NCBI GenBank assembly: GCA_963728665.1
Contig: CAVSLG010000018.1
Span: 43,762-107,761 of the forward strand
Direction: 5' to 3'
DNA: 64,000 bases
DNA from: an uncultured Actinomycetes bacterium
GTDB taxonomy: Bacteria; Actinomycetota; UBA4738; HRBIN12
Positions 26,108 through 47,639 of this stretch are shown in pieces (the first letter of the stretch is position 1; every line of letters starts with the position of its first letter). The notes under the pieces are model-generated. The model was given only the letters and a program-made list of their open reading frames with translations, ran no database searches and was not told the origin of the DNA. The position numbers and the translations under genes are program-made.

Positions 26108-27918
26108 GGTTCCTCCTTGAGCGTGAACACGACGGCGTCGCCCGATCGGAACGCGACCTCGAACTCGTCCGACGCCTCGAGAGCCGCCTGGATGTCGTCG
26201 AGCGTGCTCGGCAGTGCGGTACCGAGAGCTGTGACGGAGCGCCGCTGCGACTCCGTGAGGATGACGTAGCCGCCGTTGTACGTCTCGGAGTCACGGAGCC
26301 AGCTGGCGAGCGTCCCGGCGGGGTCGTCTCGCAGCTTCTCGAGGGTCTGGGCGTCGAGCGATCCACGTCGAAGTAGACGAACTGCTCGTACCGCCGATAC
26401 TGCCGTGGGTAATCCCTCGTGCCCTCGACGATCAGCGCGCCCGGCCTGGCGTGCTCCGTCACGTAGTCTGCCGCCGCCACCTCGTCGTCATTGAAAACCA
26501 GCCGATTGTCGATGCCGAACGCCGCAACCAACAGGCCAGACGTCGAACACGAGGAGCACGCCGGCGAGCGTGGCCACGGCGGGGATGCCCGGCCTGGCGC
26601 GGTCGACGGGGAACCAGAGGGAAGCGGCCAGGAAGGCGCCGAACGGGAGTGCGAACAGGTACGCGCGGAAGATGATCTCGCCACCGTAGGAACTGGCCAA
26701 GATCAGAACCGCGGGCACCACCGCGAGGAGCAGCACCCACCGGCTCGAGAGCTTGTGGTTGAGCCTTCGGATCAGTCCAAGCCCTGCGACCCCGACGATG
26801 CACGCGGTCAGCAGCCGGGCGACCGATGAGACGATGAACTGGTCACGGTTGACGAGCGCCGGAGTCACGAGGTTGTTGTCGAGGTTGGCCTGGAATCCTC
26901 CCAACTCCGCCGAGATCTTCCCGACGTTGTCGATCACGAAATCCCGAGCCGGGCCGAACGCCCACGCAGCCCCGAATACCATCATCGCCCCGACCGGCCA
27001 GGTCACGCGGATCACCCTGAAGAGCCGTAGGGTGGCGAGCGCAAGGATCGTGACGACCGGCGTGAGCTGGTGCGAGATCGTGATCGCCAGGAGCGAAAGC
27101 AAGACGACGGTCGAGAGGGCGGCCGCCTCAAACGTTCCTGGCGCCACGGCCTCATCTGCTCCCGGATCCGACCGGTGCGCGGACGTCGAGAACCATCGCA
27201 ACAGGATCATCATCACCACGAGGTAGAGGAAGAACGCGAGCGCCTGTGGAGCGAAGTAGTCCTGACCCACCCAGTTCCCGAGCTCGAAGATGAGCACTGC
27301 CGTCCAGACGAGCCGCCGGTCGGCCGAGAACCCCTTGAACAGCGCGTAGAGGGTGAGCGCATACAAGAGGTTGAAGAGGATGGGGGCCCACGTCGCGTAC
27401 GACATCGGTGAGTCGAGCCCCGCCTCGCGAACGATCCACGCGTTCAGGCCGAAGAACCCGGGCCAGTTGTGGTACGCGGGGAGCGAGTCGATCTGGGGGT
27501 CCACCCCTCCGGTTCGGAGGATGAACTCGACGATCCCGACGTGCTTCCATGCCCACGAGAACCGCAGGTGCTCGTAGATGAGCGCCGGCAGACCGTGGAT
27601 CATGACCGTGAGAGCCAGCACGTATACGCCGAGCAAGCGACTCGACACGTTCATGTAGAGGGCGCGCGTGTAGCCGATGATCATCGCCCCCAGGCAGAGG
27701 AGGGCGATGGGGGGCAAGATCGTGATGACGCCGAGTCCGGCAAGGTTCGCCTCGTCGGCCTGCGCGATCGCGGAGATCCACACGGTGATGACCGCGACGA
27801 TGAAGACGCCGTGGAAGGTCAGCTGATGGACAGGATCGCCTCGCGCCTCGGCCGTCGAGGTCTCTCCGCGGTCGAGGCCGACCGGTTCGGGACCCACACG
27901 AGGGTCACCGAGACGCAC
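26105..27918 (-). CDS. Large polytopic membrane protein with a C-terminal soluble domain (candidate GT-C-fold glycosyltransferase or polymerase). One frameshift near 26490.
   Basis: 476-aa ORF with at least 10 predicted TM helices (e.g. VFIVAVITVWISAIA, LLYALTLYALF, FFLYLVVMMILL). It continues after a frame change into a hydrophilic C-terminal domain of about 110 aa (...YVILTESQRRSVTALGTALPSTLDDIQAALEASDEFEVAFRSGDAVVFTLKEEP). Confidence 0.5.
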
Positions 27919-31325: not shown

Positions 31326-32015
31326 ATGTCGCGAGGAGCTCACCCAGGGCGATCTGCGCGGTGGATCGCTCGAGCGCCTTGGTCGACCCCCTGGTTCCTC
31401 TTTGTGCTTGCCGTGATGATGGCGTGCTCGGCCGACAGCGGCGAGCCGTTGGCGTCTGGGCAGGGTGCGGACACAACGCCCGCCGGTGGTGTGGGTGCAA
31501 CCGGCCCACCGTCACAGCCGACAGGGTCGCCCGGCCCGGATCGTGCACTGGGAGATCTGGAGGGCGAATCGACCGAAGCTGCCGCCACACGGAAAGATCC
31601 CGTTCCGAGTGGGGAGATCGCGCGGTTCCCTGGACTCTGGGACATTCGGGTCGATGAGGTCGATGTCGACGCGACCGACGAGGTCCTGGCGTTCGCCGAT
31701 ATCAATCCGAAACCTGAGCTTGGGTACCAGTACGTCCTGGTCACGATCGAGGGGGTCTATCGCGGCGACTCGATCGCTCAGCCCGTGTTCGAGTGGGGCC
31801 TCATCGACAGGCGGAACCGGGAGTACCAGCCATGGGTCCCGGGATGTGGAGTGATACCGAACTCCATCTACGACATCGTCGAGATCGAAGCAGGGGAGCG
31901 CTTTTCGGCGAACGTGTGCATGCCCGTCAAGGCCAGGAGCGTTCGTCGGGGCCTTGACCTCCATCTCAAGGTCGTAGGGGGCGACAAGTTGTTCTTCGAC
32001 CTAGACAGGTCCTAG
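31326..32015 (+). CDS. Hypothetical lipoprotein (DUF4352-like)
   Basis: Signal peptide with lipobox-like ...FLFVLAVMMAC|SADSG. A low-complexity linker and a small beta-rich domain (YQYVLVTIEGVY..). Overlaps the stop of the upstream gene. Confidence 0.45.
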   Translation: MSRGAHPGRSARWIARAPWSTPWFLFVLAVMMACSADSGEPLASGQGADTTPAGGVGATGPPSQPTGSPGPDRALGDLEGESTEAAATRKDPVPSGEIARFPGLWDIRVDEVDVDATDEVLAFADINPKPELGYQYVLVTIEGVYRGDSIAQPVFEWGLIDRRNREYQPWVPGCGVIPNSIYDIVEIEAGERFSANVCMPVKARSVRRGLDLHLKVVGGDKLFFDLDRS

Positions 32016-34210
32016 GCTCCACAGCCCGAGGCGGCGTATCTCGTGGCAGCATCGAACATGGCCCAGGCGTCGGGCGTAAAGCTGACGGGGGCGTTCCGGA
32101 ATACGGACATCGCGAGCCGGCATCCAGCCGCGCCCTCACCCCCCACCATCTCAGCACCGGGTTGGTAGACGAAGGTTGTTGGCGCTCCCACGGACGTTGC
32201 GATCACGATTGCGGACGGGCGAGGCGCGCCGAACGACTTCACCTTGTTGGACGGTGTCACGAGCACAGAGCCACTGAGCCCCGCGGCCAGCGGATGTGAA
32301 TCTCGGGCGATGACGACGGACTCTGATGAGTTCGTCCCGTAGTCGACGTTGGCCGTGCGGCCAGTCATCTTCATGTCATCGAGTAGCCATGGTTTGCTGA
32401 CCCAGACGGGCTGCTGCACATAGCGGAGGGTCGATCCAAGGACGTTCGAATCCACCGTCGACGTGACGAGGACGAAAGCGGCGCCGTTCGTATCGGATGC
32501 CTCCACCGTATCGTCGTCGAAGAAGTTCACAGCGAACCCATCGCTCGTGAGCCGGTCTCGGATCGAGATCTCCCCCATGAGCAGAGAGCCCGGGCTTCCG
32601 ACCACCATCATCACGGCAGGAGGGGTCATCGGATCTGCCACCATTAGGCCGACCGAAGCCTGCGATTCCCTGCCCGCAGTGTCGGTTACCGTCGCCTCAA
32701 CGAGGACTGTGCCGGCAGCGTGGGTCGTCGTATCCCATGGGATCGACCACCCGTCATGGGGATCGCTGTCGATGCCGATCGATGTTCCGTCGACGGTGAA
32801 CTCGACTCCTTCAAGACCTACGTCGTCGATAGCCGTCGCCGTCAGGTTCACGATGCCGGAGACAACGGCGCCTTCTGTCGGGGCGGTGAGGGAGATGGAT
32901 GGGCCAAGATTGTCAACCAGCACCCCGACGCCGGTGGAACTGGTCTGACCTACCGAATCGGTCACTTCGGCCCACACGTTCGCGACGCCATCAGGCACGG
33001 TCGACGAGTCCCAGTCCAGGCGCCAGCCGTCTCGTCCATCCGGGTCGACACCGACCGACGCGCCACCCGCGAAGAACTCGACCTGAGCCACGCCCTCTGA
33101 GTCCAGAGCGTCCGCCTCGAGAGCCACAACGCCCATCACTGTGCTGTCGGCTTGAGGTGACGTGAGTGCGATGGTGGGTCCCGCGTCTTGCGGGCTCGTC
33201 GCCCCCTCAGGATGCAGGTACGCATCGGCCCCCATCTGCGCGTAGCCGGCCATCGATGAGGATGAGCTGTCGGTGATCCAGGGCCTGCCGTCCTTGATCT
33301 CGTCGAAGTAGATCAGTCCCTTGAGCTCGGGCCAGGTCTTGGCGGTCGCGAGCGCGTCGATGATCCACTGGCCCTTGCGACCGGGGACCGCCGGATCTTC
33401 CTGCGCTCCCCACTCCACCGCCATCCAGGGCTTGGCGTGTCGAACGGCGAAGTCCTGGGTCGGTTGGAAGACGGTCTGGAAGGAGTTCCACGTGGATCCG
33501 GGCTTCGTGGGGTAGAAGTTGTAGCCGTCGCTGCCGATCAGGTCGACGTGGGCGTCGCCCGGGTAGTAGTCCTCGATCGGCTTGCCTGAGCGAGGATCGA
33601 ACGTCCAGGCCATCATCGTCCAGACGAACGCGACGTTATCCACGCCCTGTGCGCGGAAGACGTCGACCACGTGCCGGAACGCGGCGGCGTACTCGGCGGG
33701 GGTGCCCCAGGTCGCGAGGTCGTCCTCGGGCTCGTGATGCAGAGAGAGGTAGACGGGCACCCCGAACGCCTCGATCGCATCCGCCCTCGCGATGATCGCC
33801 GCGTCTTCGGCCCCAGAGGCGATCCTGGACCACGTGATCGCCTGACCGTTCTGGCGCTGCGCCTTCCAGTTCAAGAACGGGATCCGCCCCTGGCCCACCG
33901 TCCAGGCCTCGTGGGCCCCGGGGAAGTTCGAGTCCCACTTGTAGTACTGATGGTCGATCGCGAACCGACGCCCGATCTGGGACTCCACCCGCACGATCGC
34001 ATCGGCGCGAGACTCACCGGCACGGGGAGCGACCCAGCTCCCGAAGTAGGCGCCGGAGGAGGGGATGAGCACGGCGGGCGGACCCGAGACGGCGGCATCG
34101 GCCAACGGCAGGGTGGCGAGGATCGACGAAACCATCGTGGCAGCCGCCACAGCTATCGAGACCGCACGACTGCGCTTGCCCTCCGCGACGGATCCGCCCT
34201 TCGATCTCAC
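32012..34210 (-). CDS. Secreted GH26-like glycoside hydrolase (cassette copy B) fused to an Ig-like pair and CTM
   Basis: Catalytic domain AVLIPSSGAYFGSWVAPRAGESRADAIVRVESQIGRRFAIDHQYYKW...VYLSLHHEPEDD...PWMAVEWG...ADAYLHPEG. Then two Ig-like domains (PTIALTSPQADSTVMGVVALEADALDSEGVAQVEFF... and SISLTAPTEGAVVSGIVNLTATAIDDVGLEGVEF...). Then CTM (VMMVVGSPGSLLMGEISIRDRLTSDGFAVNFFDDD...GCRLAMSVFRNAPVSFTPDAWAMFDAATRYAASGCGA). The start is uncertain (34135-34420). Confidence 0.75.
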   Translation of the reverse strand: MRSKGGSVAEGKRSRAVSIAVAAATMVSSILATLPLADAAVSGPPAVLIPSSGAYFGSWVAPRAGESRADAIVRVESQIGRRFAIDHQYYKWDSNFPGAHEAWTVGQGRIPFLNWKAQRQNGQAITWSRIASGAEDAAIIARADAIEAFGVPVYLSLHHEPEDDLATWGTPAEYAAAFRHVVDVFRAQGVDNVAFVWTMMAWTFDPRSGKPIEDYYPGDAHVDLIGSDGYNFYPTKPGSTWNSFQTVFQPTQDFAVRHAKPWMAVEWGAQEDPAVPGRKGQWIIDALATAKTWPELKGLIYFDEIKDGRPWITDSSSSSMAGYAQMGADAYLHPEGATSPQDAGPTIALTSPQADSTVMGVVALEADALDSEGVAQVEFFAGGASVGVDPDGRDGWRLDWDSSTVPDGVANVWAEVTDSVGQTSSTGVGVLVDNLGPSISLTAPTEGAVVSGIVNLTATAIDDVGLEGVEFTVDGTSIGIDSDPHDGWSIPWDTTTHAAGTVLVEATVTDTAGRESQASVGLMVADPMTPPAVMMVVGSPGSLLMGEISIRDRLTSDGFAVNFFDDDTVEASDTNGAAFVLVTSTVDSNVLGSTLRYVQQPVWVSKPWLLDDMKMTGRTANVDYGTNSSESVVIARDSHPLAAGLSGSVLVTPSNKVKSFGAPRPSAIVIATSVGAPTTFVYQPGAEMVGGEGAAGCRLAMSVFRNAPVSFTPDAWAMFDAATRYAASGCGA
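33230..34060. repeat. About 0.83 kb dispersed DNA repeat (copy B) encoding the GH26-like catalytic cassette
   Basis: The spurious overlapping ORFs 33636..33938, 44381..44683 and 47062..47364 are identical to each other. So are 33321..33515, 44066..44260 and 46747..46941. This shows nucleotide-level identity with offsets of +10745 and +13426. Confidence 0.8.
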
Positions 34211-34581
34211 GCCACATCCCCCCACCAGCGCCTCGACGCTCCTGATCCTGTGTTCCTCGCCGATGAGCGAGGTGTCAGGTATCCATCGGTAGGTCGCACC
34301 GTCGGACTTGAGGGCAATCGTCGGCGTCCACATCGGCAATTTCGCCGACCCGACGGGGCGCGGGCGAGCTGTTGAGCCAGCTGTGCCAGGGGAACCGGAT
34401 CGACAAGGCGTGTGACCCAACGAGAAACCTCGCGAAATACCTAGTCCATCGGCCGTAGCTAGGTGAGGGGGGTCTGTGATACGTTCTGCCTACACCCGTT
34501 GTATCCATTGGCATCGTGTTGGTCGAGGAGGGGCGATGAGATCGTCGCAGCATCTCGACCCCACAGAGGAAGGTTGATCGC

Positions 34582-37500
34582 ATGCATCGTTCCCCCGCCG
34601 CTACCCGTCGATCGGTGAGCCTCGCGTTGACGGTCGCCGTGGTCGCGGCCCTGGTCGCGAGCGTTCCCCCGGCAGCCGCCAACGTGGCGCAGGATGCCAT
34701 CGTGAGTGCGAACCCGGCGAACTGGACCCCGAACGTGCTCGACGGCGAAATCTATTCATTCGTCGAGATCGGGAACAAGATTTACGCGGCCGGGCAGTTT
34801 ACGCAGGTGCAAGCCGCCACCGGCGGAACGATCTACTCCCGTAAGAACCTTTTCGCCTTCAATGCGACGACGGGAGCTATCGACACGAACTTCGCCCCGA
34901 CGTTCGACAACGTCGTCAAGTCTCTCGCGGTCGCTCCCGACGGCAACCTGTTCGCCGGCGGGTACTTCAACTCCGTCAACGGTGATACGACCGTCAGGAA
35001 GCTCGTCAAGCTCAACCCCGCCACCGGCCAGCGGATCACCGCCTTCAGTGCGAACGCGAACGGCCAGGTCTGGGAAATCAGGGTCTGGGGTACGCGTCTC
35101 CTCGTGGGGGGTCGCTTCACGTCCATCAAGAACGTAGCCCGCGATCGGCTCGCCGCACTCGACACCACCACGGGTGCCGTCGATCCCAACCTGAACTTCA
35201 CGATCACCGACCCCCACACCTCGGACTCGGTTCCGTGGGTCTATGCCATGGACGTGAGTCCTGACGGTTCCAAGCTCGTCGTGATCGGTAACTTCATGAA
35301 GATCAACGGGGAGTCGCGTCCTCAGGTCGGCGTGATCGACCTCTCCACCACGCCCGCGACTCTCGCCGACTGGCAGACCGACCGCTATGAACCGCTGTGC
35401 TTCGACTGGGCATTCGACACCTACATGCGCGACGTCGAGTTCTCACCGGACGGCTCGTACTTCGTGATCGCATCGACCGGCGGCGGGGTGACCGGGACCC
35501 TGTGCGATACGGTCGCACGCTGGAACAGCGATGCGACGGGATCCGGATTGGAGCCGGCGTGGGTCGACGTGGCTGGCGGAGACACCCTCTGGGGCCTTGC
35601 GATCACCGGAACCGCCGTCTACGTCGGCGGTCACCAGCGCTGGCTGAACAACTACTACGGTGTCGACTTCGCAGGTCCGGGCGCGGTCGTGCGATCGGGG
35701 ATAGCTGCCCTCGACCCGACGAATGGGGTGCCCTTCTCCTGGAACCCGGGAAGAAGTCGTGGAACAGCGGTCTTCGACATGTTCGCTACGGACGAAGGGC
35801 TGTGGGTGGGGAGCGACACAGACCAGATCGGTGGTGAGACCCATCGGAAGATCGCATTCTTCCCGCTCGCGGGTGGCACGACGCCGCCTTCCAACGACCC
35901 CTACACGCTGCCGGGCGACCTCTATAACGTTTCCGTATCAACATGCCAGGGGGGGACCCCTCGGTCCTTTTCCGGGTGAACACCGGAGGCCCAGGGGTCG
36001 GATCGTCGGACTGCGGGCCCGACTGGGCGGCCGATGACTCCGACGGTGCGCCTGGCGCGGCCTTCCGCAATACCGGGAGCAGCTTCGTGAGCTCATGGGG
36101 TCAGCAGTTCAGCGTGGACAGCACCGTGCCTGCCAGCACGCCGAGTACGATCTTCGACAGCGAGCGGTGGGATCCGGGCGACGCGGCCGAGATGCAGTGG
36201 AGCTTCCCCGTGGACTCCGGCACGAACCTGAGGGTCCGCCTGTACTTCATCAACCAGTACGGGGGCACCTCGGGCGTCGGCCAACGGGTCTTCGACGTCG
36301 CGATCGATGGCACGACCGTGCTCGATGACTACGACATCGTCGCCGACGTCGGAGATCGGGTCGGCACGATGAAAGCCTACGACATCACGAGCGACGGCAC
36401 CGTCAACGTCGACTTCGGGCACGTGACCGAGAACCCGCTGATCAATGGCATCGAGATCATCGACAGGGACGCCACCCCTGTCCTGCCTGGGGAGATCGAC
36501 TTCCTCGGGCGTCGGCAGTTCGACGGCTCGACCCTCGGGGCCACTACGAACCTCAGCACTCCGGGCACCGACTGGAGTTCTACGCGAGGCGCCTTCGCGT
36601 TGCAGGGCAAGCTCTATACCGGTTCCACCGACGGCAACTTCTACGTGCGGTCGTTCGACGGTTCCTCAGTCGGACAGCCCCAGCAGATCAATCTCAACGG
36701 GTTGACGGACTTCCCGATGCAGTCGCTCACGGGCATGTTCTTCGCGAACGGCGGCATCTACTACACGGTCCAGGGCGACCCGCAGATGCACTACCGGTAT
36801 TTCACGCCCGAGAGTGGGATCGTGGGTTCGTACCGCTTCTCGCCCTCCGGCAGTTTCGACTTTAGTGACGTTCGCGGAATGACCCTAGCGAACGAGGAGA
36901 TCTTCTTCTCGCGGACGGACGGGAACCTCTACTCGATGGAGTTCTCGAACGGTTCGCCGGTCCCGGGGACGGAGCAGCTCGTGAGCCCGGCGACCGATGG
37001 TTACGACTGGGCATCGCGCGGGCTGTTCGTTTTTGAATCCGTCGTCGACGGGGACCCGACCGTCGACCTGACGTCGCCGAACGATGGCGCCACCGTCAGT
37101 GGCATCGTGAACATGACCGCGACTGCCTCCGACGCCGAGGGCCTCACCCAGGTCGAGTTCATGGTCGACGGCACCTCGATCGGTGTCGACACGAACGGTG
37201 GGAACGGGTGGTCGGTCCAGTGGAATACGACGACGCACCCGGATGGTGCCGCGACGGTGGTCGCCACCGCGACCGACACCGCCAACAAGACGGCGACCGA
37301 TCAGGTGTCGGTGACGGTCGACAACTCGTCCCCGGGCACCGTGCTGATGGTCGTGGCCGACCCGAACTCCCTGCTCGCCGGTGAGACCGCGGTGCGCAAC
37401 CGACTCACGAACGACGGCTACACGGTCTCCTTGATCGACGACAACGTCGTCGCGGCCGCCGATGCCAACGGCGCCGCGTTCGTCTTCATCTCCTCGACCG

Positions 37501-37949
37501 TGAACGCCAACGTCGTGGGGACGAAGCTGCGTGACGTGCCCCAACCCGTCTGGACGGCCAAGCCCTATCTGCTCGACGACATGCGGATGACCGGCACGGT
37601 GGCCGACGTCGACTACGGCTCGGTCACATCGGCCTCGATCGTGATCACCAATGCCGCACACCCGCTGGCGGGTGGACAGAACGGGACCGTGGCGATCACG
37701 ACCTCGAACCACGGGAAGTCCTTCGGGATCCCCGGCGCGGGCGCAGAGACGGTCGCCACGGCCGCCGGCAAGGTGACGACCTTCGTCTACCAGGCCGGTG
37801 ACCAGCTCGTCGGTGGCACCACCGCACCGGGCTGTCGGCTGACCTCGTCGGCGTTCCAGAACGGGCCGGCGAACTTCACCGCCGCCGGATGGACGATGTT
37901 CGAGGCTGCCGCCGACTACTTGGCGGCGAACTGTGAAGCTGGCCCGTAA
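34582..37949 (+). CDS. Secreted delta-60-repeat beta-propeller protein with a malectin-like (CBM57) domain, repeat domain, Ig-like domain and CTM. One frameshift near 35950.
   Basis: SD gaggaagg plus ATG. Signal VSLALTVAVVAALVASVPPAAA. The propeller is paralogous to 28250..31318 (IYAAGQFTQV, LFAGGYFNSVNG, LLVGGRFTSIKN, VVIGNFMKINGE). Malectin-like block VLFRVNTGGP...AAEMQWSFPVDSGTNLRVRLYFINQY...GQRVFDVAIDGTTVLDDYDIVADVG...NPLINGIEII. Ig-like domain (PTVDLTSPNDGATVSGIVNMTATASDAEGLTQVEF...). CTM (TVLMVVADPNSLLAGETAVRNRLTNDGYTVSLIDDN...ANCEAGP). Confidence 0.75.
37050..37945. repeat. About 0.9 kb DNA repeat encoding Ig-like + CTM. It is nearly identical to 41075..41950, and its CTM part is nearly identical to 40440..41040.
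   Basis: Long identical antisense ORF segments (36885..38018 vs 40225..41733; 37001..37288 vs 41046..41309). Confidence 0.75.
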
Positions 37950-38170
37950 ATTCAAGGGGATCGGACGACGATGGTGGGGCCTGAAGCGTAGCTTCCCCCC
38001 ATCGTCGTCTGCCCTCATCAGCTGCAGTGGTGTTGATCAGGACTGGAAGACGCCGCTCGCCTCTAGAAGAGGTTGCAGTGAAGTCACACTCTCGAGCGTG
38101 CATTCACTCAGCACGTAGGCGTCTTGTTCGACTTACGTCGGTCGTGCTAGGGTCCTTGCGGGAGGGAAGG

Positions 38171-41100
38171 ATGCGATTTCGCACAATAGCTCAATACCGG
38201 CCACGAGGTCAGGCGTTTCGCAACCGCACCGCCCCCTTCCTTTTCGTTGCGCTTCTCTCTCTGGCTTTGGTAGCAGTCGGGTTGATCCCTGTCGCCGAGG
38301 CACAAGTCATCCTCCCCGATGAATACTCTGCGGCCACCATCGTGGTGGGTCTCAGCGACGGTAGGGATATCGTGGCGGCACCCGATGGGCGAATGTTTGT
38401 CGCTCTGGGTACCGGCCAGATTCGTGTGATTCAGAACGACGCGCTCTTGTCTCAGCCGTTGCTGGCCATCCCGGTCGGCAGCGGTGGGAACAAGGGGCTT
38501 CACACGCTCGCCCTTGACTCGGCGTTCTCGCAGAACGGGTACCTGTACGCCGTCTACACACCCATGGGGACTGACTTCAATCGGCTGTCACGGTTCACGG
38601 TCGTGGGCAACACGGCCAACCTGAATTCGGAGTTCAGGATCATGGACCTTCCGCCCCTGGAGGGTGCGCCTTCTCACTACGGCGGTGCTGTCGTCGACCT
38701 GGGGGACGGCACGCTCCTCGTGACAGTGGGGGATCACGAGAGAGCATCGAACGGACAGAACCTCAACGTATTAACCGGCAAGGCGCTACGCATCAACAAG
38801 GACGGGACGATTCCTCCCGACAACCCCTATGTGGGCAGTTCAACCATCGACCATAGGATCTACGCGCACGGTTTCCGAAACCCATGGCAAGCGGCGCTCC
38901 AGCGGAGCACCGGCCGAGTCGTCATCAGTGATGTTGGCTCGTCCCTGTGGGAGGAAGTCAACGTCCTCGCTTCCGGCGCGGACTACGGGTGGGCGGACGT
39001 TGAAGGCCCGGGAGGCCCCGGGACAGAGCCGTTGTTCGCCTACCCGCATTTCGGGCTGATCCCGGGCGCTCCATTCGAGGGATGTGCGGTGACCGGAGGG
39101 ACGTTTTACGAGCCTGATGTGGTGCAGCTACCGAGCCGATTCGTTGGGCGCCTCTTTGTGGGCGACCTCTGCAGTGGGTGGATCGCGTCTGTTGATCCAG
39201 AGACCGGCGAGGCGGAGGCTTTCGCCTCCGGATTCGATTCCCTCGCTGATCTCGCGACGAACCCAACCAATGGGGCCTTGTATGCCCTCGATCGCAACCT
39301 TGTGGACAACCGGAGCGGCATCATCAAGATCGAGTACATCGGTGGAAACGCCACGCTGCGCATCACCTCTCAACCGACCTCCCAACGGCTCGCCATCGGC
39401 CAGCGGGCATCCTTCTTCGTGGGTGCTGTTGGACAGGGCGATCTCCATTATCAGTGGCAGCGCGATGGAGTCGACATCCCAGGTGCCAACTCACCAACAT
39501 ATGTCGTTGATCCGGTGGCCCAGCCGATGACGGTGCCCAGTTCCGGGCGGTCGTGTCAGACGACGTCGGCCAAGTGACGAGTTCTGTGGCGGAGATCATC
39601 GTCACGGACAACCATGCTCCCCAGCCTTTCATCACTAAACCACCGGTAGGCAAGACCTACGGGGGAGGGGAGCAGATCACGCTCGTCGGCGGAGCGAACG
39701 ACGAAGAGGACGGTGTACTCAGCGAGACGGCCCTGACTTGGGAGGTTCGCCTAAGTCACGACGGGCATGACCATGGATTCACAGGAGAGATCGTTGGCAC
39801 TGGACAGTTCACCATCACGATTCCCCGCAGCGGAGAGACATCAGACGATGTCTGGTACACGGTCTACCTGACCGCCGAAGACGCCGATGGGGCGTCTACC
39901 ACGGTGGTGAGGACCATACAGCCGCGAAAGGTATCCATCCAGTTCAACACCTCACCATCTGGGGGTGTCCTCAATATCGATGGCCCGTCTCAAGCCACCC
40001 CGCATCAGGTGGTCGGTGTAGAAGGTGTCTTCCGGGAGCTGCGGGCGCCGAGGGTGCAGGAGTTCGGCGGGGAGCCTCACGGGTTCGTGCGATGGAGTGA
40101 CAATGGCTCAAGGGAGCACACGTTCGTTACCCCGGCCATCAATGCGTCACTGACGGCCCAGTATTCACCTTTGCCATTCGGTCAAGGCGCGACTCCCACG
40201 TGCTTCGTGGCACCTATGGACGATTCAGCCGTTGTCACCTTCTCCGGCAGCCTTGGCAGCTCCGTCAATCTTCGCCGCGATGGTCGTTGGATACAGACCG
40301 TGACGGGTTTCGAATACTACGTTGATGGCGATTCTCCTCTGCCGAACGCCGCATACTCGATCCGTGTTCGGGCGAATGGAGTGACGACCGACTATCCATG
40401 CTCCGGAGTTCAGTGGCCACCCGAAGGCGAACCACCTCCACCGTCCGGTACCGTGCTGATGGTCGTGGCCGACCCGAACTCCCTGCTCGCCGGTGAGACC
40501 GCGGTGCGCAACCGACTCACGAACGACGGCTACACGGTCTCCTTGATCGACGACAACGTCGTCGCGGCCGCCGATGCCAACGGCGCCGCGTTCGTCTTCA
40601 TCTCCTCGACCGTGAACGCCAACGTCGTGGGGACGAAGCTGCGCGACGTGCCCCAACCCGTCTGGACGGCCAAGCCCTATCTGCTCGACGACATGCGGAT
40701 GACCGGCACGGTGGCCGACGTCGACTACGGCTCGGTCACATCGGCCTCGATCGTGATCACCAATGCCGCACACCCGCTGGCGGGTGGACAGAACGGGACC
40801 GTGGCGATCACGACCTCGAACCACGTGAAGTCCTTCGGGATCCCCGGCGCGGGCGCAGAGACGGTCGCCACGGCCGCCGGCAAGGTGACGACCTTCGTCT
40901 ACCAGGCCGGTGACCAGCTCGTCGGTGGCACCACCGCACCGGGCTGTCGGCTGACCTCGTCGGCCAACCAGAACGGGCCGGCGAACTTCACCGCCGCCGG
41001 CTGGACGATGTTCGAGGCTGCCGCCGACTACGCGGCGGCGAACTGTCAGACCGGGCCACCTCCACCGGACGAAAACCCGACCGTCGACCTGACGTCGCCG

Positions 41101-41958
41101 AACGATGGCGCCACCGTCAGTGGCATCGTGAACATGACCGCGACTGCCTCCGACGCCGAGGGCCTCACCCAGGTCGAGTTCATGGTCGACGGCACCTCGA
41201 TCGGTGTCGACACGAACGGTGGGAACGGGTGGTCGGTCCAGTGGAATACGACGACGCACCCGGATGGTGCCGCGACGGTGGTCGCCACCGCGACCGACAC
41301 CGCCAACAAGACGGCGACCGATCAGGTGTCGGTGACGGTCGACAACTCGTCCCCGGGCACCGTGCTGATGGTCGTGGCCGACCCGAACTCCCTGCTCGCC
41401 GGTGAGACCGCGGTGCGCAACCGACTCACGAACGACGGCTACACGGTCTCCTTGATCGACGACAACGTCGTCGCGGCCGCCGATGCCAACGGCGCCGCGT
41501 TCGTCTTCATCTCCTCGACCGTGAACGCCAACGTCGTGGGGACGAAGCTGCGTGACGTGCCCCAACCCGTCTGGACGGCCAAGCCCTATCTGCTCGACGA
41601 CATGCGGATGACCGGCACGGTGGCCGACGTCGACTACGGCTCGGTCACATCGGCCTCGATCGTGATCACCAATGCCGCACACCCGCTGGCGGGTGGACAG
41701 AACGGGACCGTGGCGATCACGACCTCGAACCACGGGAAGTCCTTCGGGATCCCCGGCGCGGGCGCAGAGACGGTCGCCACGGCCGCCGGCAAGGTGACGA
41801 CCTTCGTCTACCAGGCCGGTGACCAGCTCGTCGGTGGCACCACCGCACCGGGCTGTCGGCTGACCTCGTCGGCGTTCCAGAACGGGCCGGCGAACTTCAC
41901 CGCCGCCGGATGGACGATGTTCGAGGCTGCCGCCGACTACTTGGCGGCAAGCTGCTAG
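38171..41958 (+). CDS. Secreted PQQ-dependent sugar dehydrogenase-like (soluble glucose/sorbosone dehydrogenase fold) beta-propeller protein with Ig-like domains and two CTM copies. One frameshift near 39560.
   Basis: SD ggagggaagg plus ATG. Signal/TM FLFVALLSLALVAVGLIPVAEA. GSDH-family motifs (LSDGRDIVAAPDGRMFVA, SHYGGAVVDLGDGTLLVTVGDHE, ALRINKDGTIPPDNPY, IYAHGFRNPW, YGWADVEGPGGPG). Ig-like domains. First CTM (40440-41040). Ig-like domain. Second CTM (41340-41955). Confidence 0.75.
41075..41950. repeat. Second copy of the about 0.9 kb Ig-like + CTM DNA repeat (see 37050..37945)
   Basis: Same evidence as copy 1. The offset is 4045 bp. Confidence 0.75.
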
Positions 41959-42026
41959 CGTCGCCAGGTTGGGAAGGCGAGCGCCCGCTCCAAAGTGCTC
42001 GAGTCTATGTTGGTGTCGGAGCCCAT

Positions 42027-43034
42027 CTATCCTCTTAGGTCAAAGAATGGGTCGGACGCCATCGCAGCGAAGGCGTTCGTGGCGGTGTCGGATGAATCTA
42101 CCGGCCAGCTGCAGCCTGGTTTCGCGGGGTTGATGGTCTGGAAGTAGAGCACCATCTTGACGCGGCGAAACGCCCTCTTCTTCAGTTGCCGGCGAGCGTC
42201 CCGGATCCACTCTGCCTTCCGCCCCGGATCGGTGGGGTCCTCTGTGCTGCCCCACTCAGGCAGGACGATCGGCTTCCCTGGGTGGTCCTTCGCCCAGGAA
42301 CGGATCGGGACGATCTTTTCGCGGAAGGTCTGCCAGGGTCGGCCGGACACCGAACAGTCAGCAGAGTTGTAGAGATCGGCACCGATGACATCGACGAAGT
42401 CGTCGCCGGGGTACCAGTAGTTGGCTGCACGCTCGTCTGTCGTCTCGAAGGCCCAGTCGGTCATCGTCCAAGTCCAACTGACGTTCCGGACTTCCTGCTG
42501 ACGGAACACCTGCACGAAGTTGCGCCATGCCGCGACGAAATCGGACGATGAACCCAAGGCGTCGTTGGCTTGTGACTCCGGCTCATGGTTGAAGATGAGG
42601 TAGATGTGCTTATCGAACGCCCGAACGCGCCGGGCCCAATCCATCATCGTCGCGTGAATATCCGAACCTGGTGCGGCATCGGCCACCGAGCGCCACGGCA
42701 CGATGGACCCATCCTGGCGCACTGATTTCACACTCAGAACTATGGTTCGATTCTTGCGCTTGAGCCACTTGACGTGGTCGTTCGGGAACTGACTGTCCCA
42801 CTTCAAGTAGACCCGAGTGGCCCGAAGCCTCTGGCCGATCATGCGCTCGAAGCGACGTTGGGCATCAACGAGGGATCCACCCGCGTTGTCCTGGACGAAG
42901 GCGCCCAGGACTGCTCCTCTCCCCGAGAGCCGATCGTCGGCGCGGGCGGTCGGTCCGAAGGCGGTCACCACGACCGCGATGATTGAAATGAGGGCCAGGG
43001 CGCCTCGGGGCGGGGTCCGGATCTCGTTCTCCAT
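42027..43034 (-). CDS. Secreted GH26-like glycoside hydrolase; divergent standalone paralog
   Basis: Signal peptide GALALISIIAVVVTAFGPTARA. It has the same catalytic signature as the cassette family (IYLIFNHEPESQ ... PIVLPEWGSTEDP) at about 35-40% identity. Confidence 0.65.
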   Translation of the reverse strand: MENEIRTPPRGALALISIIAVVVTAFGPTARADDRLSGRGAVLGAFVQDNAGGSLVDAQRRFERMIGQRLRATRVYLKWDSQFPNDHVKWLKRKNRTIVLSVKSVRQDGSIVPWRSVADAAPGSDIHATMMDWARRVRAFDKHIYLIFNHEPESQANDALGSSSDFVAAWRNFVQVFRQQEVRNVSWTWTMTDWAFETTDERAANYWYPGDDFVDVIGADLYNSADCSVSGRPWQTFREKIVPIRSWAKDHPGKPIVLPEWGSTEDPTDPGRKAEWIRDARRQLKKRAFRRVKMVLYFQTINPAKPGCSWPVDSSDTATNAFAAMASDPFFDLRG

Positions 43035-43182
43035 GAGCCTGCCTCCTCATGGTGGTTGATGGGCTGAAGGGTTGAGGAAACGAAAGAGACCGCCCGAATC
43101 GTCCCCGGACGGCCTCTGGCGTGAGTATGGTCGAAGGTATCAGATGAGGTAGGGGTGTCAACCTTGTCGCTTCCAACCCTCT

Positions 43183-44958
43183 TCAGGGCCCGAGGTAGGA
43201 GTCTCGTGAGACGCCTGGCTCGTCTGTCCAGAAGGTGAAGGAGGACGTGGCCCTGCCGGAGCGGCCGATCTGCACCACATCGACTGCCTGCCCGATCCGC
43301 TGTCCAGAACGAGACCGCACGATCTCGGATGGGACCTGAATGTCCCCGTCAAACACCATCATTTCGATCGTCCCTGAGACGTGATCCGATGACCATTCGA
43401 TACGCAGCCAGCCGCGAGTCCAGATCGGCTCCGAGGTTCTGAGAACCACCTCTCCCTTTCGATCGCGGGCGCGGAGGTCGCCTCCAGGGGTGATCTCGAT
43501 AGAGACGCTTGTCGCGCCCTTGTGTTTGGCCCGAACGAGTTGGAGCGGTTCCTTTGGCGCTCGAGGAAGCCAGACGTAGAAGCGTCCGAACCAACGATCG
43601 CTGACTCCGAAGGAGTGTCCGTATTCGTAGAAGGCATTCTCGCCAGGGCCGGCCTCGTGCTTGGCGGCAAGCCCGGAGTGCGCACGTCTCGAGTCGTAGA
43701 TCAAGCTCGCCCCGCGCTCGGCCTTGACCGAATCAAAGGCTGACCCGCTGGCGCCACCGCTGTTCGCGCGCGTGATGCCTTCCCCTGGCGACCCTCCGTC
43801 GAGTGAGTTGGTGAGGGGGCTAGGGCTAGGGCTAGGGCTAGGGCTAGGGCTAGGGCTAGGGCTAGGGCTAGGGCTAGGGCTAGGGCTAGGGCTAGGGCTA
43901 GGGCTAGGGCTAGGGCTAGGGCTAGGGCTAGGGCTAGGGCTAGGGAATGGCCTTCCACTCAGATGACCATCGGCCCCCATCTGCGCGTAGCCGGCCATCG
44001 ATGAGGATGAGCTGTCGGTGATCCAGGGCCTGCCGTCCTTGATCTCGTCGAAGTAGATCAGTCCCTTGAGCTCGGGCCAGGTCTTGGCGGTCGCGAGCGC
44101 GTCGATGATCCACTGGCCCTTGCGACCGGGGACCGCCGGATCTTCCTGCGCTCCCCACTCCACCGCCATCCAGGGCTTGGCGTGTCGAACGGCGAAGTCC
44201 TGGGTCGGTTGGAAGACGGTCTGGAAGGAGTTCCACGTGGATCCGGGCTTCGTGGGGTAGAAGTTGTAGCCGTCGCTGCCGATCAGGTCGACGTGGGCGT
44301 CGCCCGGGTAGTAGTCCTCGATCGGCTTGCCTGAGCGAGGATCGAACGTCCAGGCCATCATCGTCCAGACGAACGCGACGTTATCCACGCCCTGTGCGCG
44401 GAAGACGTCGACCACGTGCCGGAACGCGGCGGCGTACTCGGCGGGGGTGCCCCAGGTCGCGAGGTCGTCCTCGGGCTCGTGATGCAGAGAGAGGTAGACG
44501 GGCACCCCGAACGCCTCGATCGCATCCGCCCTCGCGATGATCGCCGCGTCTTCGGCCCCAGAGGCGATCCTGGACCACGTGATCGCCTGACCGTTCTGGC
44601 GCTGCGCCTTCCAGTTCAAGAACGGGATCCGCCCCTGGCCCACCGTCCAGGCCTCGTGGGCCCCGGGGAAGTTCGAGTCCCACTTGTAGTACTGATGGTC
44701 GATCGCGAACCGACGCCCGATCTGGGACTCCACCCGCACGATCGCGTCGGCGCGAGACTCACCGGCACGGGGAGCGACCCAGCTCCCGAAGTAGGCGCCG
44801 GACGAGGGGATGAGGACGGCGGGAGGACCGACGGGAGCGGCGCTCACCGCCGTCGGGGCGACCAGGCCCGAGGCGAGCGCCATGCACGAGAGTAGCGCGA
44901 CGACGGTCTTCCCCAGCGAACCTGCAGAGAGCCGTGGAATGGACGAGGGGGTTGCCAT
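43183..44958 (-). CDS. Secreted GH26-like glycoside hydrolase (cassette copy C), then a (Pro-Ser)21 linker and a C-terminal beta-sandwich (lectin/ConA-like?) domain
   Basis: Signal peptide TVVALLSCMALASGLVAPTAVSA. The catalytic domain is identical to copies B and D. A PSPSPS... run precedes a 190-aa C-terminal domain (WFGRFYVWLP...WLRIEWSSDHVSGTIEMMVFDGD...). Confidence 0.7.
   Translation of the reverse strand: MATPSSIPRLSAGSLGKTVVALLSCMALASGLVAPTAVSAAPVGPPAVLIPSSGAYFGSWVAPRAGESRADAIVRVESQIGRRFAIDHQYYKWDSNFPGAHEAWTVGQGRIPFLNWKAQRQNGQAITWSRIASGAEDAAIIARADAIEAFGVPVYLSLHHEPEDDLATWGTPAEYAAAFRHVVDVFRAQGVDNVAFVWTMMAWTFDPRSGKPIEDYYPGDAHVDLIGSDGYNFYPTKPGSTWNSFQTVFQPTQDFAVRHAKPWMAVEWGAQEDPAVPGRKGQWIIDALATAKTWPELKGLIYFDEIKDGRPWITDSSSSSMAGYAQMGADGHLSGRPFPSPSPSPSPSPSPSPSPSPSPSPSPSPSPSPSPSPSPSPSPSPLTNSLDGGSPGEGITRANSGGASGSAFDSVKAERGASLIYDSRRAHSGLAAKHEAGPGENAFYEYGHSFGVSDRWFGRFYVWLPRAPKEPLQLVRAKHKGATSVSIEITPGGDLRARDRKGEVVLRTSEPIWTRGWLRIEWSSDHVSGTIEMMVFDGDIQVPSEIVRSRSGQRIGQAVDVVQIGRSGRATSSFTFWTDEPGVSRDSYLGP
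43817..43942. repeat. Perfect hexanucleotide microsatellite (GGGCTA)21, which is (TAGCCC)21 on the coding strand. It encodes the (Pro-Ser)21 linker.
   Basis: Read directly from the sequence: 126 bp of uninterrupted GGGCTA units. Confidence 0.95.
43975..44805. repeat. About 0.83 kb GH26-like cassette DNA repeat, copy C
   Basis: See copy B. Confidence 0.8.
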
Positions 44959-45234
44959 GCGGAGTGCCTCCCTCGCCTGCCTGGCGGGGACGGGACAACC
45001 TCGCATCCCCCTGAGTCAGGCAGACGAACCAGTCGGGGTATGAATCGGCGTGCGGGCTGGGGATGCTTGAGTGGGGCGATAGGGCGCTCTTTGGACCCCC
45101 CATCCAGGGGACAGACATGAGCGAGATGAGGCTGGACGATGTCTGGCAGGGACGCACGGTAGGACGTTTCCACGTGTGAGACGGAGAGAAGACGACGTCG
45201 CCTACCGATTTCCGCGAAGGACGGCACTACTGTT

Positions 45235-45558
45235 TTGGAGATGACCGGACCTGTTTCGCCGCCCCATGACGACGGGCTGGCATCACGCGCGTACCTGGTG
45301 CGTGATGCAGTAGTGACGTCGAAGAGACTGTCGGAGCGTGATCGGAAGGCGGCAGTTGCGGCCTTGGCCGAGATCGTCTCTCAAGCGCGACGGGCCGAAG
45401 GATACGAGGAGGCCTTGCGGGCGATCGCGGGTCAGCAGCTTGACGCCGAACCTGGCTACGGGGCCACGATGTCCGGCGTCAAGGCGTTCGCGAGGGACGT
45501 GCTTGCATCGACGTCAAGGCGATGGGCGGCGCGGCCCAGGGTTGCCGCCAACGAGTAA
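45235..45558 (+). CDS. Hypothetical small protein (low confidence)
   Basis: 107-aa ORF with plausible helical composition, in the intergenic space between cassette copies C and D. No recognizable motif. Confidence 0.2.
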   Translation: MEMTGPVSPPHDDGLASRAYLVRDAVVTSKRLSERDRKAAVAALAEIVSQARRAEGYEEALRAIAGQQLDAEPGYGATMSGVKAFARDVLASTSRRWAARPRVAANE

Positions 45559-45710
45559 CGCGAGGCGGATCGGCTTCTCGGCGCTAGGGGCCGAACCGAC
45601 CGACGAATGGCAACTCCAGTGATCTTGCCGCGCCCTACATTCCTCCGCGCATCGATGAGCTGCGCGATCTGGGTCGAGCGCCGTCCTTCATCATGACGAG
45701 ATGGACGTCC

Positions 45711-47639
45711 TCAGTTCGTTGAGCAGCCCGATGATGCGAACGCCACTGCAGCGTCGAACATCTCCCAAGCAGCAGTCGTGAAACTCACCGGTCCGTCTCG
45801 GAACACTGAAGACGACAAGCGACAGCCCCTCGCGGGACCGCCCCCCACCAACAGATCGCCAGCTTGGTAGACGAATGTGGTGGGCTTGCCGGCCACGGTC
45901 GCGATAACGTCCGCCGAGGGGCGAGGAAGGCCGAACGACTTCGTCCTGTTCTCCGGGGTCGTGAGGACCGTTCCCCGTTTGCCAGCGGCGAGCACGTGAG
46001 TTTCGTTCTCGACGACGATCGAGGGCGACGACACCGTGCCGTACTCGACGCTCGGGCATCGCCCTCGTCATCAGCATGTCGTCCAGGGCGTAGGGTTTCG
46101 CGACCCACACCGGATGCGGCACATCGCGCAGCTTCGAACCCAGGACACGGCTGTCGATCGTCGACATCACCATCACGAAGGCCGCGCCATCCGCATCGGA
46201 TGCCTGCACCGCGTTGTCGTCGACGGCCGCCACTGTGTATCCGCTGACCGAGAGTCGATCGACGACGGCAACCTCACCCCGGATCAAGCGGCTCGGGACT
46301 CCGACCACCATGACGACGTTCCCCAGCTCGGTCTCCACGATGACTTCGGCGCTATCGGACGCGGATTGGCCGAGTCGTGTCAGTCGCCAACACCGATACA
46401 GTTCGCAGGTCCATCGGTGGCAGTGGCAGCGTTCCACTCGAGGGTCCACCCGTCGGTGCCGTCCGAGTCAACTCCGATCAGGACGCCGTCGACGTAGAAA
46501 TCGACTCGCTGCACGGCCACGTCGTCAGCCGCGTCGGCGCTGATCGTTACCGTACCGCTGAGGATGTCACCGTCAGCCGGCGAAATCAGCGAGACGGTCG
46601 GCCGCTGGTCAGGAACGGGCACCGGACTTGGGCTCACGCTCAGGTACGCATCGGCCCCCATCTGCGCGTAGCCGGCCATCGATGAGGATGAGCTGTCGGT
46701 GATCCAGGGCCTGCCGTCCTTGATCTCGTCGAAGTAGATCAGTCCCTTGAGCTCGGGCCAGGTCTTGGCGGTCGCGAGCGCGTCGATGATCCACTGGCCC
46801 TTGCGACCGGGGACCGCCGGATCTTCCTGCGCTCCCCACTCCACCGCCATCCAGGGCTTGGCGTGTCGAACGGCGAAGTCCTGGGTCGGTTGGAAGACGG
46901 TCTGGAAGGAGTTCCACGTGGATCCGGGCTTCGTGGGGTAGAAGTTGTAGCCGTCGCTGCCGATCAGGTCGACGTGGGCGTCGCCCGGGTAGTAGTCCTC
47001 GATCGGCTTGCCTGAGCGAGGATCGAACGTCCAGGCCATCATCGTCCAGACGAACGCGACGTTATCCACGCCCTGTGCGCGGAAGACGTCGACCACGTGC
47101 CGGAACGCGGCGGCGTACTCGGCGGGGGTGCCCCAGGTCGCGAGGTCGTCCTCGGGCTCGTGATGCAGAGAGAGGTAGACGGGCACCCCGAACGCCTCGA
47201 TCGCATCCGCCCTCGCGATGATCGCCGCGTCTTCGGCCCCAGAGGCGATCCTGGACCACGTGATCGCCTGACCGTTCTGGCGCTGCGCCTTCCAGTTCAA
47301 GAACGGGATCCGCCCCTGGCCCACCGTCCAGGCCTCGTGGGCCCCGGGGAAGTTCGAGTCCCACTTGTAGTACTGATGGTCGATCGCGAACCGACGCCCG
47401 ATCTGGGACTCCACCCGCACGATCGCGTCGGCGCGAGACTCACCGGCACGGGGAGCGACCCAGCTCCCGAAGTAGGCACCGGACGAGGGGATGAGGACGG
47501 CGGGCGGGGGAGCCGCCCGCGATGCCCCGGAGAACAGGCCTTGAGTGAGCGCGAGGGAGACGAGGGTCGCAGACAGGAAGAGTGCGAAAGACGCTCGCGG
47601 TCTCATCGACCGCGGCTCGCGACGTTGCGTGGAACTCAT
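45711..47639 (-). CDS. Secreted GH26-like glycoside hydrolase (cassette copy D) followed by an Ig-like domain and CTM. The C-terminal part has frameshifts (possible pseudogene).
   Basis: Signal peptide ASFALFLSATLVSLALTQG. The catalytic domain is identical to B and C. Then Ig-like (PTVSLISPADGDILSGTVTISADAADDVAVQRVDFYV...). The CTM is split between frames 45691..46449 (...LIRGEVAVVDRLSVSGYTVAAVDDNAVQASDADGAAFVMVMST...) and 45711..46034 (...GCRLSSSVFRDGPVSFTTAAWEMFDAAVAFASSGCSTN). Confidence 0.6.
46656..47486. repeat. About 0.83 kb GH26-like cassette DNA repeat, copy D
   Basis: See copy B. Confidence 0.8.

Follow-up and report, generated by a model that had tools for sequence, protein, structure and literature searches.

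Near-identical modules carried by different genes are already known from other bacterial carbohydrate-enzyme clusters. Kellett and co-workers are said to have found, in 1990, identical cellulose-binding domains encoded by a xylanase gene and the arabinofuranosidase gene next to it in Pseudomonas fluorescens subsp. cellulosa. As in the locus described here, neighbouring glycanase genes share a module while the remainder of each gene differs; the module of P. fluorescens is non-catalytic, however, whereas our locus shares a catalytic domain and, separately, a C-terminal tail. In the CAZyme cluster of Caldicellulosiruptor bescii, three GH48 modules are 100% identical (Dam et al. 2011, PMC3082886), and there too one cluster holds several secreted multi-domain glycoside hydrolases with near-identical modules in differing contexts. 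C. bescii is a Firmicute degrader of plant biomass in whose bifunctional enzymes PT linkers connect the modules (GH48, GH5, CBM3), whereas the modules considered here belong to GH26, a family with a (beta/alpha)8 barrel and a double-displacement mechanism (PMC10470212), and have ConA-like and Big_7+ThuA-like partners in an island of exopolysaccharide (EPS) biosynthesis. A GH26 enzyme of such a setting is WpsE, from the wps-1 Wzx/Wzy exopolysaccharide cluster of Actinoplanes missouriensis (PMC13390465).

We analysed a stretch of 64,000 nt (the window) from an uncultured Actinomycetes bacterium, positions 43,762 to 107,761 of the forward strand of contig CAVSLG010000018.1 in assembly GCA_963728665.1. 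It contains five copies of a GH26 domain, A to E, in the following genes (positions are those of the window; CTM is a C-terminal module).

33215..34084, minus strand: cassette B, catalytic domain (GH26) of gene B; ungapped identity of 99.5% with C and D; Pfam GH26 30.9 bits
43968..44829, minus strand: cassette C, catalytic domain (GH26) of gene C; identity of 99.5-99.8% with B and D; Pfam GH26 31.4 bits
46641..47507, minus strand: cassette D, catalytic domain (GH26) of gene D; identity of 99.5-99.8% with B and C; PDB 2bv9 E 1.9e-25, residues 52-326
32012..34420, minus strand: gene B, longest ORF, likely start near 34208; signal peptide, GH26, Big_7 (from about 33178), Big_7 (32705-32902), CTM (32015-32632)
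43183..45006, minus strand: gene C; signal peptide, GH26, (PS)21 linker (43817-43945), ConA-like beta-sandwich (43186-43815)
45723..47639, minus strand: gene D; signal peptide, GH26, Big_7 (46410-46601), CTM (45723-46317)
13921..14802, plus strand: copy A, GH26 domain inverted relative to B, C and D; 90.1% identical, ungapped
42027..43034, minus strand: copy E, stand-alone and distantly paralogous GH26 gene; 36% amino-acid identity (tblastn); Pfam GH26 28.9 bits

A first-pass annotation, made from the letters of the sequence, had described cassettes B, C and D as nucleotide-identical and had proposed a self-BLASTN as a check. This search, together with a repeat finder, recovered the three repeats, ungapped, at exactly the offsets claimed (+10745 and +13426). 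Near-identity therefore stands (99.5-99.8%), whereas strict identity was a slight overstatement: B 33215-34081 differs from D 46641-47507 at 4 of 867 nt (99.54%), C 43968-44826 from D 46649-47507 at 2 of 859 nt (99.77%), and B 33223-34084 from C 43968-44829 at 4 of 862 nt (99.54%). An ungapped match of 860 nt at >99.5% cannot have arisen by chance. In a three-way alignment, the cassettes share a perfect core of 778 nt (34000 down to 33223 in B), and the substitutions are confined to the first ~80 coding nt, or to the last few nt, where C deviates. The identity breaks off abruptly where the signal peptide joins the cassette and where the catalytic domain ends, and the flanks are unalignable on both sides, upstream (the signal peptides) as well as downstream.

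The three differing downstream contexts were found as annotated: two Big_7 domains and a CTM in B, (PS)21 and a 210-aa domain in C, and Big_7 with a frame-broken CTM in D. The open reading frame of gene D ends, as read, at 46380, and its CTM can be read only by shifting the frame by +1 three times, twice at about 46370-46400 and once at 46065; these shifts may be sequencing errors, because other genes of the island are also split, one of them at a G7 homopolymer. The linker of gene C is coded by a perfect (GGGCTA)21.5 repeat, and its architecture, GH26 followed by a ConA-like domain, is the dominant one among relatives. An AF2 model of the 210-aa domain (pLDDT 95.3) is a beta-sandwich jelly-roll, which Foldseek matched to a trans-sialidase lectin domain, TtX122, BoNT Hc, legume lectins, Cip1 and PL7 (E about 2e-6 to 2.6e-5, TM up to 0.68). 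The term lectin-like thus holds for this domain at the level of a ConA-like fold and not beyond; because it has no Pfam or PDB sequence match, it lies outside any named sequence family. For the CTM (~200 aa), the model suggests a ThuA/GATase1-like fold, and the annotation's name of binding modules is putative for these C-terminal domains.

Enzymes of family GH26 are retaining enzymes of clan GH-A with two catalytic glutamates; one of them, CtLic26A, is a beta-1,3-1,4-glucanase, the GH26 domain of CelH of C. thermocellum. The assignment of the cassettes as GH26-like, originally drawn from motifs, was upheld by the HMM search that the annotation had suggested. All five copies, A to E, exceed the gathering score of PF02156 (28.7-32.4 bits, against 20.2), in alignments that span only profile positions 139-233 of 311, and phmmer matched the catalytic domain end to end with the lichenase CtLic26A (2bv9; E 1.9e-25). 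In the alignment with 2bv9, the acid/base Glu109 corresponds to the first Glu of HHEPE and the nucleophile Glu222 to the Glu of AVEWG; these residues are conserved in 122/122 and 121/122 homologs, respectively. Judged by sequence, the segment shared by B, C and D is a genuine GH26 domain, and the end-to-end alignment points to a (beta/alpha)8 barrel. CtLic26A is the nearest solved relative, although the homology is distant: it has HEANGD where the window copies have HEPE(D/N)D, and its lichenan activity cannot be assumed for them. For annotation, the signature HHEPE / (A/V)(V/A)E(Y/T/F/W)G is conserved in this poorly modelled GH26 clade, in which an unannotated ConA-like C-terminal domain is usual and which is linked to actinobacterial EPS loci.

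Copy A, described previously as about 90% identical and on the opposite strand, proved to be exactly so by self-BLASTN. Its gene (about 13756-14805) stands alone and supplies a hydrophobic anchor at the N-terminus; the product is the database protein P0001. The proposed comparison of substitution rates gave a dS of 0.27 and a dN/dS of 0.24 between A and B/C/D. Copy A is a mosaic relative to B/C/D; in its alignment with D, the longest identical run is 152 nt (p<1e-5 for all sites, p=0.0015 for third codon positions only). Copy E was rightly called a distant paralog and clusters with the relatives L001x/L002x/L006x.

Copies A to D form one cluster beside L001a and L013. The identities are 89% between A and C/D, 76% between A and L013, 74% between D and L001a, and 69% between L013 and L001a. 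Copy A, which is syntenic with the stand-alone GH26 genes of L013/L016, and C, which is built as L001a, reach 73-77% with these architecture-matched relatives; the window paralogs are closer to one another than to architecture-matched or syntenic homologs elsewhere. In the relatives, by comparison, tandem GH26 paralogs are old (44-70% identity), and the a and b copies of L003/L004/L005/L012 group by paralog type across genomes. The stand-alone and ConA-type architectures are likewise old, and GH26+Big_7 occurs elsewhere too, with a catalytic domain that has diverged (42% in P0104). The signal peptide of gene D has a weak, marginal likeness to that of L001b (score 46 vs 25 +/- 5 for shuffles), unlike its catalytic domain, which is nearer L001a (74%) than L001b (65%). 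The D-C tandem does not match the a-b tandems of relatives in synteny, in that the ConA-like domain of C is of the a-type, yet C lies downstream. As to the age of the recipient genes, the relatives compared reach at most 77% identity.

The GH26 genes lie in an island that contains a second repeat and a set of polysaccharide-biosynthesis genes.

37054..37933, plus strand: Big_7+CTM at the 3' end of a propeller/malectin gene; 99.8% identical to 41075-41954
41075..41954, plus strand: partner copy of Big_7+CTM at the 3' end of a GSDH-type gene; 99.8% identical to 37054-37933
14873..27918, minus strand: polysaccharide-biosynthesis genes adjoining copy A, several fragmented, including an epimerase and an Fe-S protein
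14873-15796 and 25048-25704, minus strand: GT2 genes
18406-19413 and 20269-20976, minus strand: sulfotransferases
26488-27918, minus strand: membrane protein with about 10 TM-like segments, without Pfam match

The Big_7+CTM pair (99.8% over 880 nt) is unrelated to the GH26 segment, and its edge again falls at a domain border; a further CTM copy (40447-41046) is 98.2-98.5% identical. This Big_7 + ThuA-like C-terminal module, for which there is no Pfam model, occurs eight times in 36 kb and is found in thousands of giant multi-repeat proteins. In the island it is carried by secreted heads that are unrelated to one another (phytase, GH26, beta-propeller/malectin lectins and a PQQ-type sugar dehydrogenase). 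The island partly resembles wps-1, likewise an actinomycete EPS locus, in that a GH26 gene accompanies GT2 genes, two sulfotransferases and a polytopic membrane protein, the likeness to WpsE being one of family level; copy A and its L013/L016 homologs directly adjoin genes of these kinds. Neither Wzx nor Wzz was recognised in the window, and wps-1 has one GH26 gene, compared with five in the window island.

We considered that these repeats reflect recent gene conversion among pre-existing GH26 paralogs of the EPS-locus island, a reading to which we assign a probability of roughly 0.6. The annotation had offered recent cassette duplication or gene conversion; recent recombination is borne out, and of the two routes gene conversion fits better than de novo shuffling. 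Whole-gene duplication is rejected, because genes B and D combine cassettes of 99.5% identity with adjacent CTMs of about 67% and unalignable signal peptides. B, C and D would be paralogous genes for secreted GH26 glycanases, and ectopic homologous recombination, in the form of gene conversion or concerted evolution, would recently have written their catalytic domains over one another. The tract so converted would run from the first family-conserved residues past the signal peptide (GPPAVLIPSSGAYFGSW) to the last such residues, GADAYL, before the linker. The ends of the tract match the ends of family-wide conservation, and its limits would be the limits of homology between the paralogs, so that promoter, signal peptide and C-terminal modules would have remained particular to each gene. 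The bunching of substitutions in the first ~80 nt is as expected close to tract ends. Copy A, inverted and 18-32 kb away, may have joined in older, shorter conversions, and the same process may have homogenised the Big_7+CTM module of two neighbouring genes. Because the closest outgroups reach only 74-77%, the conversion events are neither datable nor polarisable. Had the ancestral paralogs been as far apart as the paralogs within the relatives are (about 65-70% amino-acid identity), they would have undergone homologous recombination inefficiently, which counts against conversion.

A different route, which we regard as doubtful though worth weighing, is recent duplication and fusion at the domain level, in which illegitimate or micro-homology-mediated recombination copied the catalytic segment into other secreted-protein genes and thereby made GH26 fusions with Big_7+CTM tails. 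The single lineage formed by A to D beside L001a and L013 agrees with this route, as does an island gene that reads CTM-Big_7-CTM, an internal duplication. Moreover, the Big_7+CTM tail sits on many unrelated heads in the island (phytase, beta-propeller, malectin, GSDH) and is absent from 16/16 related loci, which indicates that reassortment of modules in this lineage is real. Fusion would nevertheless require two in-frame, non-homologous junctions precisely at domain borders, at least twice; it leaves the mosaic of A and D unexplained, and GH26+Big_7 and stand-alone GH26 were already present in distant relatives. Insertion of a mobile cassette (integron-type cassette, MITE or IS) at three sites is suggested superficially by a repeated unit with sharp ends, and is effectively refuted: the unit codes, in frame, for a domain inside a protein, no terminal inverted repeats above chance 12-13-mers were found at the cassettes, no integrase, transposase or tRNA was present among the genes scanned in the window, and an Rfam search gave no matches.

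An artefact of assembly or polishing, in which the repeat consensus was pasted three times over moderately diverged real paralogs or some copies do not exist, appears improbable. The island does contain apparent indel errors, such as a G7 run (35946-35952) that splits one gene and others near 39540 and in the EPS genes, and related MAGs have split genes of the same kind. Yet with about one frameshift per 2-3 kb elsewhere in the island, only about one would be predicted in the cassettes (2.6 kb), and it is no anomaly that they are intact. In addition, each copy lies in frame within a complete domain architecture and between unique, unalignable flanks, copy-specific substitutions survive inside the repeat, copy A stayed distinct at 90%, and long reads easily span a 0.86-kb repeat. 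The source has the look of a long-read MAG that contains errors, and B, C and D could therefore be less exactly identical than they read; near-identical repeats of this kind are a hazard when MAGs are assembled and reads are mapped to them.

Since the phenomenon is documented elsewhere, as in C. bescii, the proposed gene conversion among the GH26 paralogs opens no new mechanistic question. By functional inference, their substrate is probably the polysaccharide of the adjacent GT2/sulfotransferase locus. More speculatively, and in our view rather unlikely, the island (10.7-48 kb) might be a lineage-specific system of enzyme-to-matrix tethering, in which the Big_7 + ThuA-like module docks enzymes on the cell's own, possibly sulfated, exopolysaccharide and gene conversion keeps catalytic domains and docking modules interchangeable. 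On the favoured reading, by gene conversion, the locus would be a clean case, resolved to single domains, of concerted evolution within one family of bacterial CAZymes: recombination would homogenise exactly one protein domain, while the signal peptides and targeting modules could go on diverging. One catalytic activity would be deployed with differing putative targeting modules, either ConA-like or Big_7 with the ThuA-like CTM, and for that activity the gene dosage would in effect be three, from B, C and D.

Genes B, C and D, all on the minus strand, carry GH26 cassettes that self-BLASTN and a repeat finder identified as direct copies, reproducing the offsets of +10745 and +13426 reported in the first-pass annotation. 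The extents of the cassettes, and of two further GH26 copies, are as follows.

33215-34084, minus strand: cassette B
43968-44829, minus strand: cassette C
46641-47507, minus strand: cassette D
13921-14802, plus strand: copy A, a stand-alone GH26 copy, 90.1% identical to the cassettes and gap-free
42027-43034: gene of paralog E, whose encoded protein is 36% identical

The three tracts align pairwise without gaps over 859-867 nt at 99.5-99.8% identity. They had been described as nucleotide-identical, which is true of a perfect three-way core of 778 nt (B 34000-33223, base-by-base alignment) but not of the whole tract: 4-6 substitutions, all synonymous, are confined to the first ~80 coding nt, and the last codons specify GADGHL in C alone, versus GADAYL. 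Directly beyond the tract, on both sides, B, C and D no longer align. Copies A and E agree with the earlier description of an opposite-strand copy of about 90% identity and a distant paralog at 42.0-43.0 kb.

The contexts of the cassettes differ, as had also been noted. The signal-peptide-like N-termini of B, C and D change from gene to gene and are mutually unrelated. After the GH26 domain, B continues with two Ig-like Big_7 domains and a C-terminal module of ~200 aa (CTM); C continues with (PS)21, encoded by a perfect (GGGCTA)21.5 repeat, and a 210-aa domain; and D has a single Big_7 domain followed by a CTM whose reading requires three +1 frame changes (at 46065 and twice near 46370-46400), the assembled D ORF ending at 46380. 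The linker DNA of C (43817-43945) is a hexanucleotide microsatellite with 100% matches, and this perfection suggests a recent expansion; its length is probably unstable.

Neither the CTM nor the 210-aa domain of C matched any sequence in Pfam, NCBIfam or PDB, and structure prediction with a fold search (AlphaFold models built on homolog alignments) was alone informative. The domain of C (43186-43815, minus strand) was modelled as a confident all-beta sandwich (pLDDT 95.3), with the trans-sialidase lectin domain, TtX122, botulinum Hc-N, legume lectins, Cip1 and PL7 as fold neighbours. Its earlier designation as lectin-like is thus upheld as a predicted ConA-like lectin/glucanase fold, but not by database sequence matches. 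Because two of these neighbours, PL7 and Cip1, are lyases, a catalytic role may also be considered. The domain belongs to a widespread family with near-invariant RIEW and FWTD.P motifs that is carried by most GH26 proteins of the clade, and its combination with GH26 is common in relatives (~60 among the 120 best homologs, along with the majority of related loci).

The CTM, for which a ThuA/GATase1-like fold is tentatively predicted, occurs eight times in the window and in none of the 16 related loci. Besides B and D, the proteins that carry it in the window are a phytase, beta-propeller proteins, a malectin protein and one of glucose/sorbosone-dehydrogenase type. There is no Pfam model for this domain family, and the impression of extreme rarity given by a word-indexed search (3 matches) was overturned by an exhaustive profile search, which yielded 4,578 cluster representatives, many of them in proteins of 1,000-3,400 aa that contain 2-9 repeats. 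In the phytase gene (10719-13688), Big_7 domains and two CTMs are joined to a beta-propeller phytase domain (PF02333, E 3e-70), an unusual combination for this enzyme. One gene of the window has the order CTM-Big_7-CTM. A matrix-docking function for the Big_7+CTM tail, shared across a secreted-enzyme toolkit, seems to us improbable.

The catalytic domain had been called GH26-like from its FHHEPE and AVEWG motifs. All five copies, A-E, match the central part of the Pfam GH26 profile (PF02156) at 28.7-32.4 bits, against a gathering score of 20.2 bits, and the top match among solved structures is 2bv9 (E 1.9e-25, residues 52-326 versus 6-278, nearly the whole domain). This structure is the lichenase CtLic26A, which forms the GH26 domain of CelH from C. 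thermocellum; the cassette domain is a sequence relative of it. In the alignment, Glu109 and Glu222 of 2bv9, which serve CtLic26A as acid/base and nucleophile, respectively, lie opposite the first Glu of HHEPE and the Glu of AVEWG, and these residues are conserved in 122/122 and 121/122 aligned family members, respectively. Because of the Pfam match, the 2bv9 alignment and the conservation of both Glu residues, we consider the assignment to GH26 sound at the level of sequence. Enzymes of this family are (beta/alpha)8 retaining glycanases with two Glu, and include beta-mannanases, beta-1,3-xylanases, mixed-linkage xylanases and one lichenase (PMC10470212).

How might the near-identity of these cassettes have arisen? 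Whole-gene duplication is excluded by the B/D pair, in which the cassettes are 99.5% identical, the adjoining CTMs only ~67% identical, and the 5′ ends unalignable. We favour recent gene conversion among pre-existing GH26 paralogs (probability of about 0.6), because of the following observations. Recombination between paralogs would have to end at the limits of homology, GPPAVLIPSSGAYFGSW and GADAYL, and the tract ends, from GPPAVLIPSSGAYFGSW to GADAYL, are the limits of family-wide conservation, both motifs being found also in distant homologs. Copy A is a mosaic relative to B/C/D, with 2, 2, 2, 11, 9, 5, 0, 0, 4, 11, 11, 4, 9 and 12 differences per successive 60 nt and a longest identical run of 152 nt (p<1e-5 for all sites, p=0.0015 for third codon positions only); overall, dS amounts to 0.27 and dN/dS to 0.24. 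The main competing account, that the domain was recently copied into other genes by illegitimate recombination, has in its favour the module reassortment obvious in this lineage, but it leaves this mosaicism unexplained and requires repeated, precise, in-frame non-homologous junctions; we judge it rather unlikely. Assembly collapse or duplication is an improbable source of the identity, since the cassettes lie in frame within unique flanks, still show substitutions specific to each copy, and have a length that long reads can span.

Gene conversion is further favoured by comparison with related loci, all from MAGs labelled ‘uncultured Actinomycetes bacterium’. Copy A (stand-alone, syntenic with locus L013) and C (ConA-type, like the tandem copy L001a) are 89% identical, whereas they share 73-77% identity with the L013/L001a relatives, whose own mutual identity is 69%; by these values, the window paralogs are closer to one another than to their likely orthologs. 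In the relatives, the GH26 paralogs are old: tandem paralogs are 44-70% identical, and the a and b copies of L003, L004, L005 and L012 cluster by paralog type across genomes. The combination of GH26 with Big_7 is found elsewhere, in the database protein P0104, with a 42% identical catalytic domain. Moreover, the window contains a second near-identical module, Big_7+CTM, with which two neighbouring genes terminate at their 3′ ends (37054-37933 versus 41075-41954, 99.8% over 880 nt), together with a third CTM copy (40447-41046) that is 98.2-98.5% identical to these.

Two other correspondences with the relatives were rejected: the D-C tandem as an ortholog of their a-b tandems, for which the C-terminal domain types mismatch, and an A/B inversion as a route back to the gene order of L013 and L016, which it did not restore. 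An N-terminal comparison for orthologous signal peptides gave marginal scores, for D/L001b and B/L001a only. A search for signs of a mobile cassette found no terminal inverted repeats longer than the 12-13-mers expected by chance, no tRNAs or Rfam families, and no recombinases among the scanned genes.

The scanned housekeeping ORFs of the flanks are long and have clear Pfam matches; therefore, the frameshifts in D may be sequencing errors rather than pseudogenisation. Elsewhere, a G7 run (35946-35952) splits the propeller/malectin gene, a further split lies near 39540 (about 39535-39545), and exopolysaccharide (EPS) genes are fragmented across 19429-25100, including a GT2 gene at 19429-20229. 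The apparent frameshifts of this island (~10.7-48 kb) could reflect either genuine decay or errors made in sequencing a strain-variable region.

A comparable pattern is known from Caldicellulosiruptor bescii, whose CAZyme cluster contains three GH48 modules that are 100% identical (PMC3082886). A further case is reportedly that of neighbouring xylanase genes in Pseudomonas/Cellvibrio, which share an identical cellulose-binding domain. The phenomenon itself is the same; what differs is the host, an uncultured actinomycete, the family, a divergent GH26 clade, the ConA-like and Big_7+ThuA-like partner modules, and the setting in an EPS locus.

The G+C content of the island is slightly below that of its flanks (66.8% for the window), and the housekeeping genes bordering it are those for GroEL and glutamate dehydrogenase at one end, and IMPDH-like, GMP synthase and PcrA genes at the other. 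Several features outside it were also recorded. Five repeats of a 35-nt unit (48647-48820, 96% matches) lie directly upstream of, and extend into the start of, a phosphodiesterase/NPP-family gene (48813-50210); because every unit has a Shine-Dalgarno-like GAAGGGG and then ATG, the ribosome-binding site and start region are reiterated. A tandem duplication with a ~247-nt unit (5856-6350, 88% identity) overlaps very-high-GC3 ORFs (5119-5913, plus strand; 6006-6332, minus strand), and 1613-1770 and 6559-6714 show weak inverted similarity. The right flank encodes a 1,297-aa nSTAND1 NTPase with many WD40 repeats (60046-63939, minus strand), unconnected with the cassettes.

The interval from A to B is occupied by genes for polysaccharide biosynthesis, which encode two or more GT2 proteins, sulfotransferases, an epimerase, an Fe-S protein and a membrane protein of ~10 TM-like segments. 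Three or more sulfotransferase-family genes are present in the window (3832-4845, 18406-19413, 20269-20976 and also 21031-21486). In L013 and L016, a stand-alone GH26 gene adjoins homologous EPS genes and a propeller/malectin gene. In Actinoplanes missouriensis, the wps-1 locus described in a 2026 study is a Wzx/Wzy cluster with GT2, two sulfotransferases and the GH26 gene wpsE, whose deletion led to partly abnormal sporangia; according to its authors, no such GH26-containing cluster had been characterised (PMC13390465). Because sulfotransferases stand with the GT2 genes, the epimerase and the membrane protein, the gene content suggests a sulfated exopolysaccharide locus resembling wps-1, and, given the precedent of its GH26 gene, EPS processing is a plausible role for the GH26 proteins of the window.
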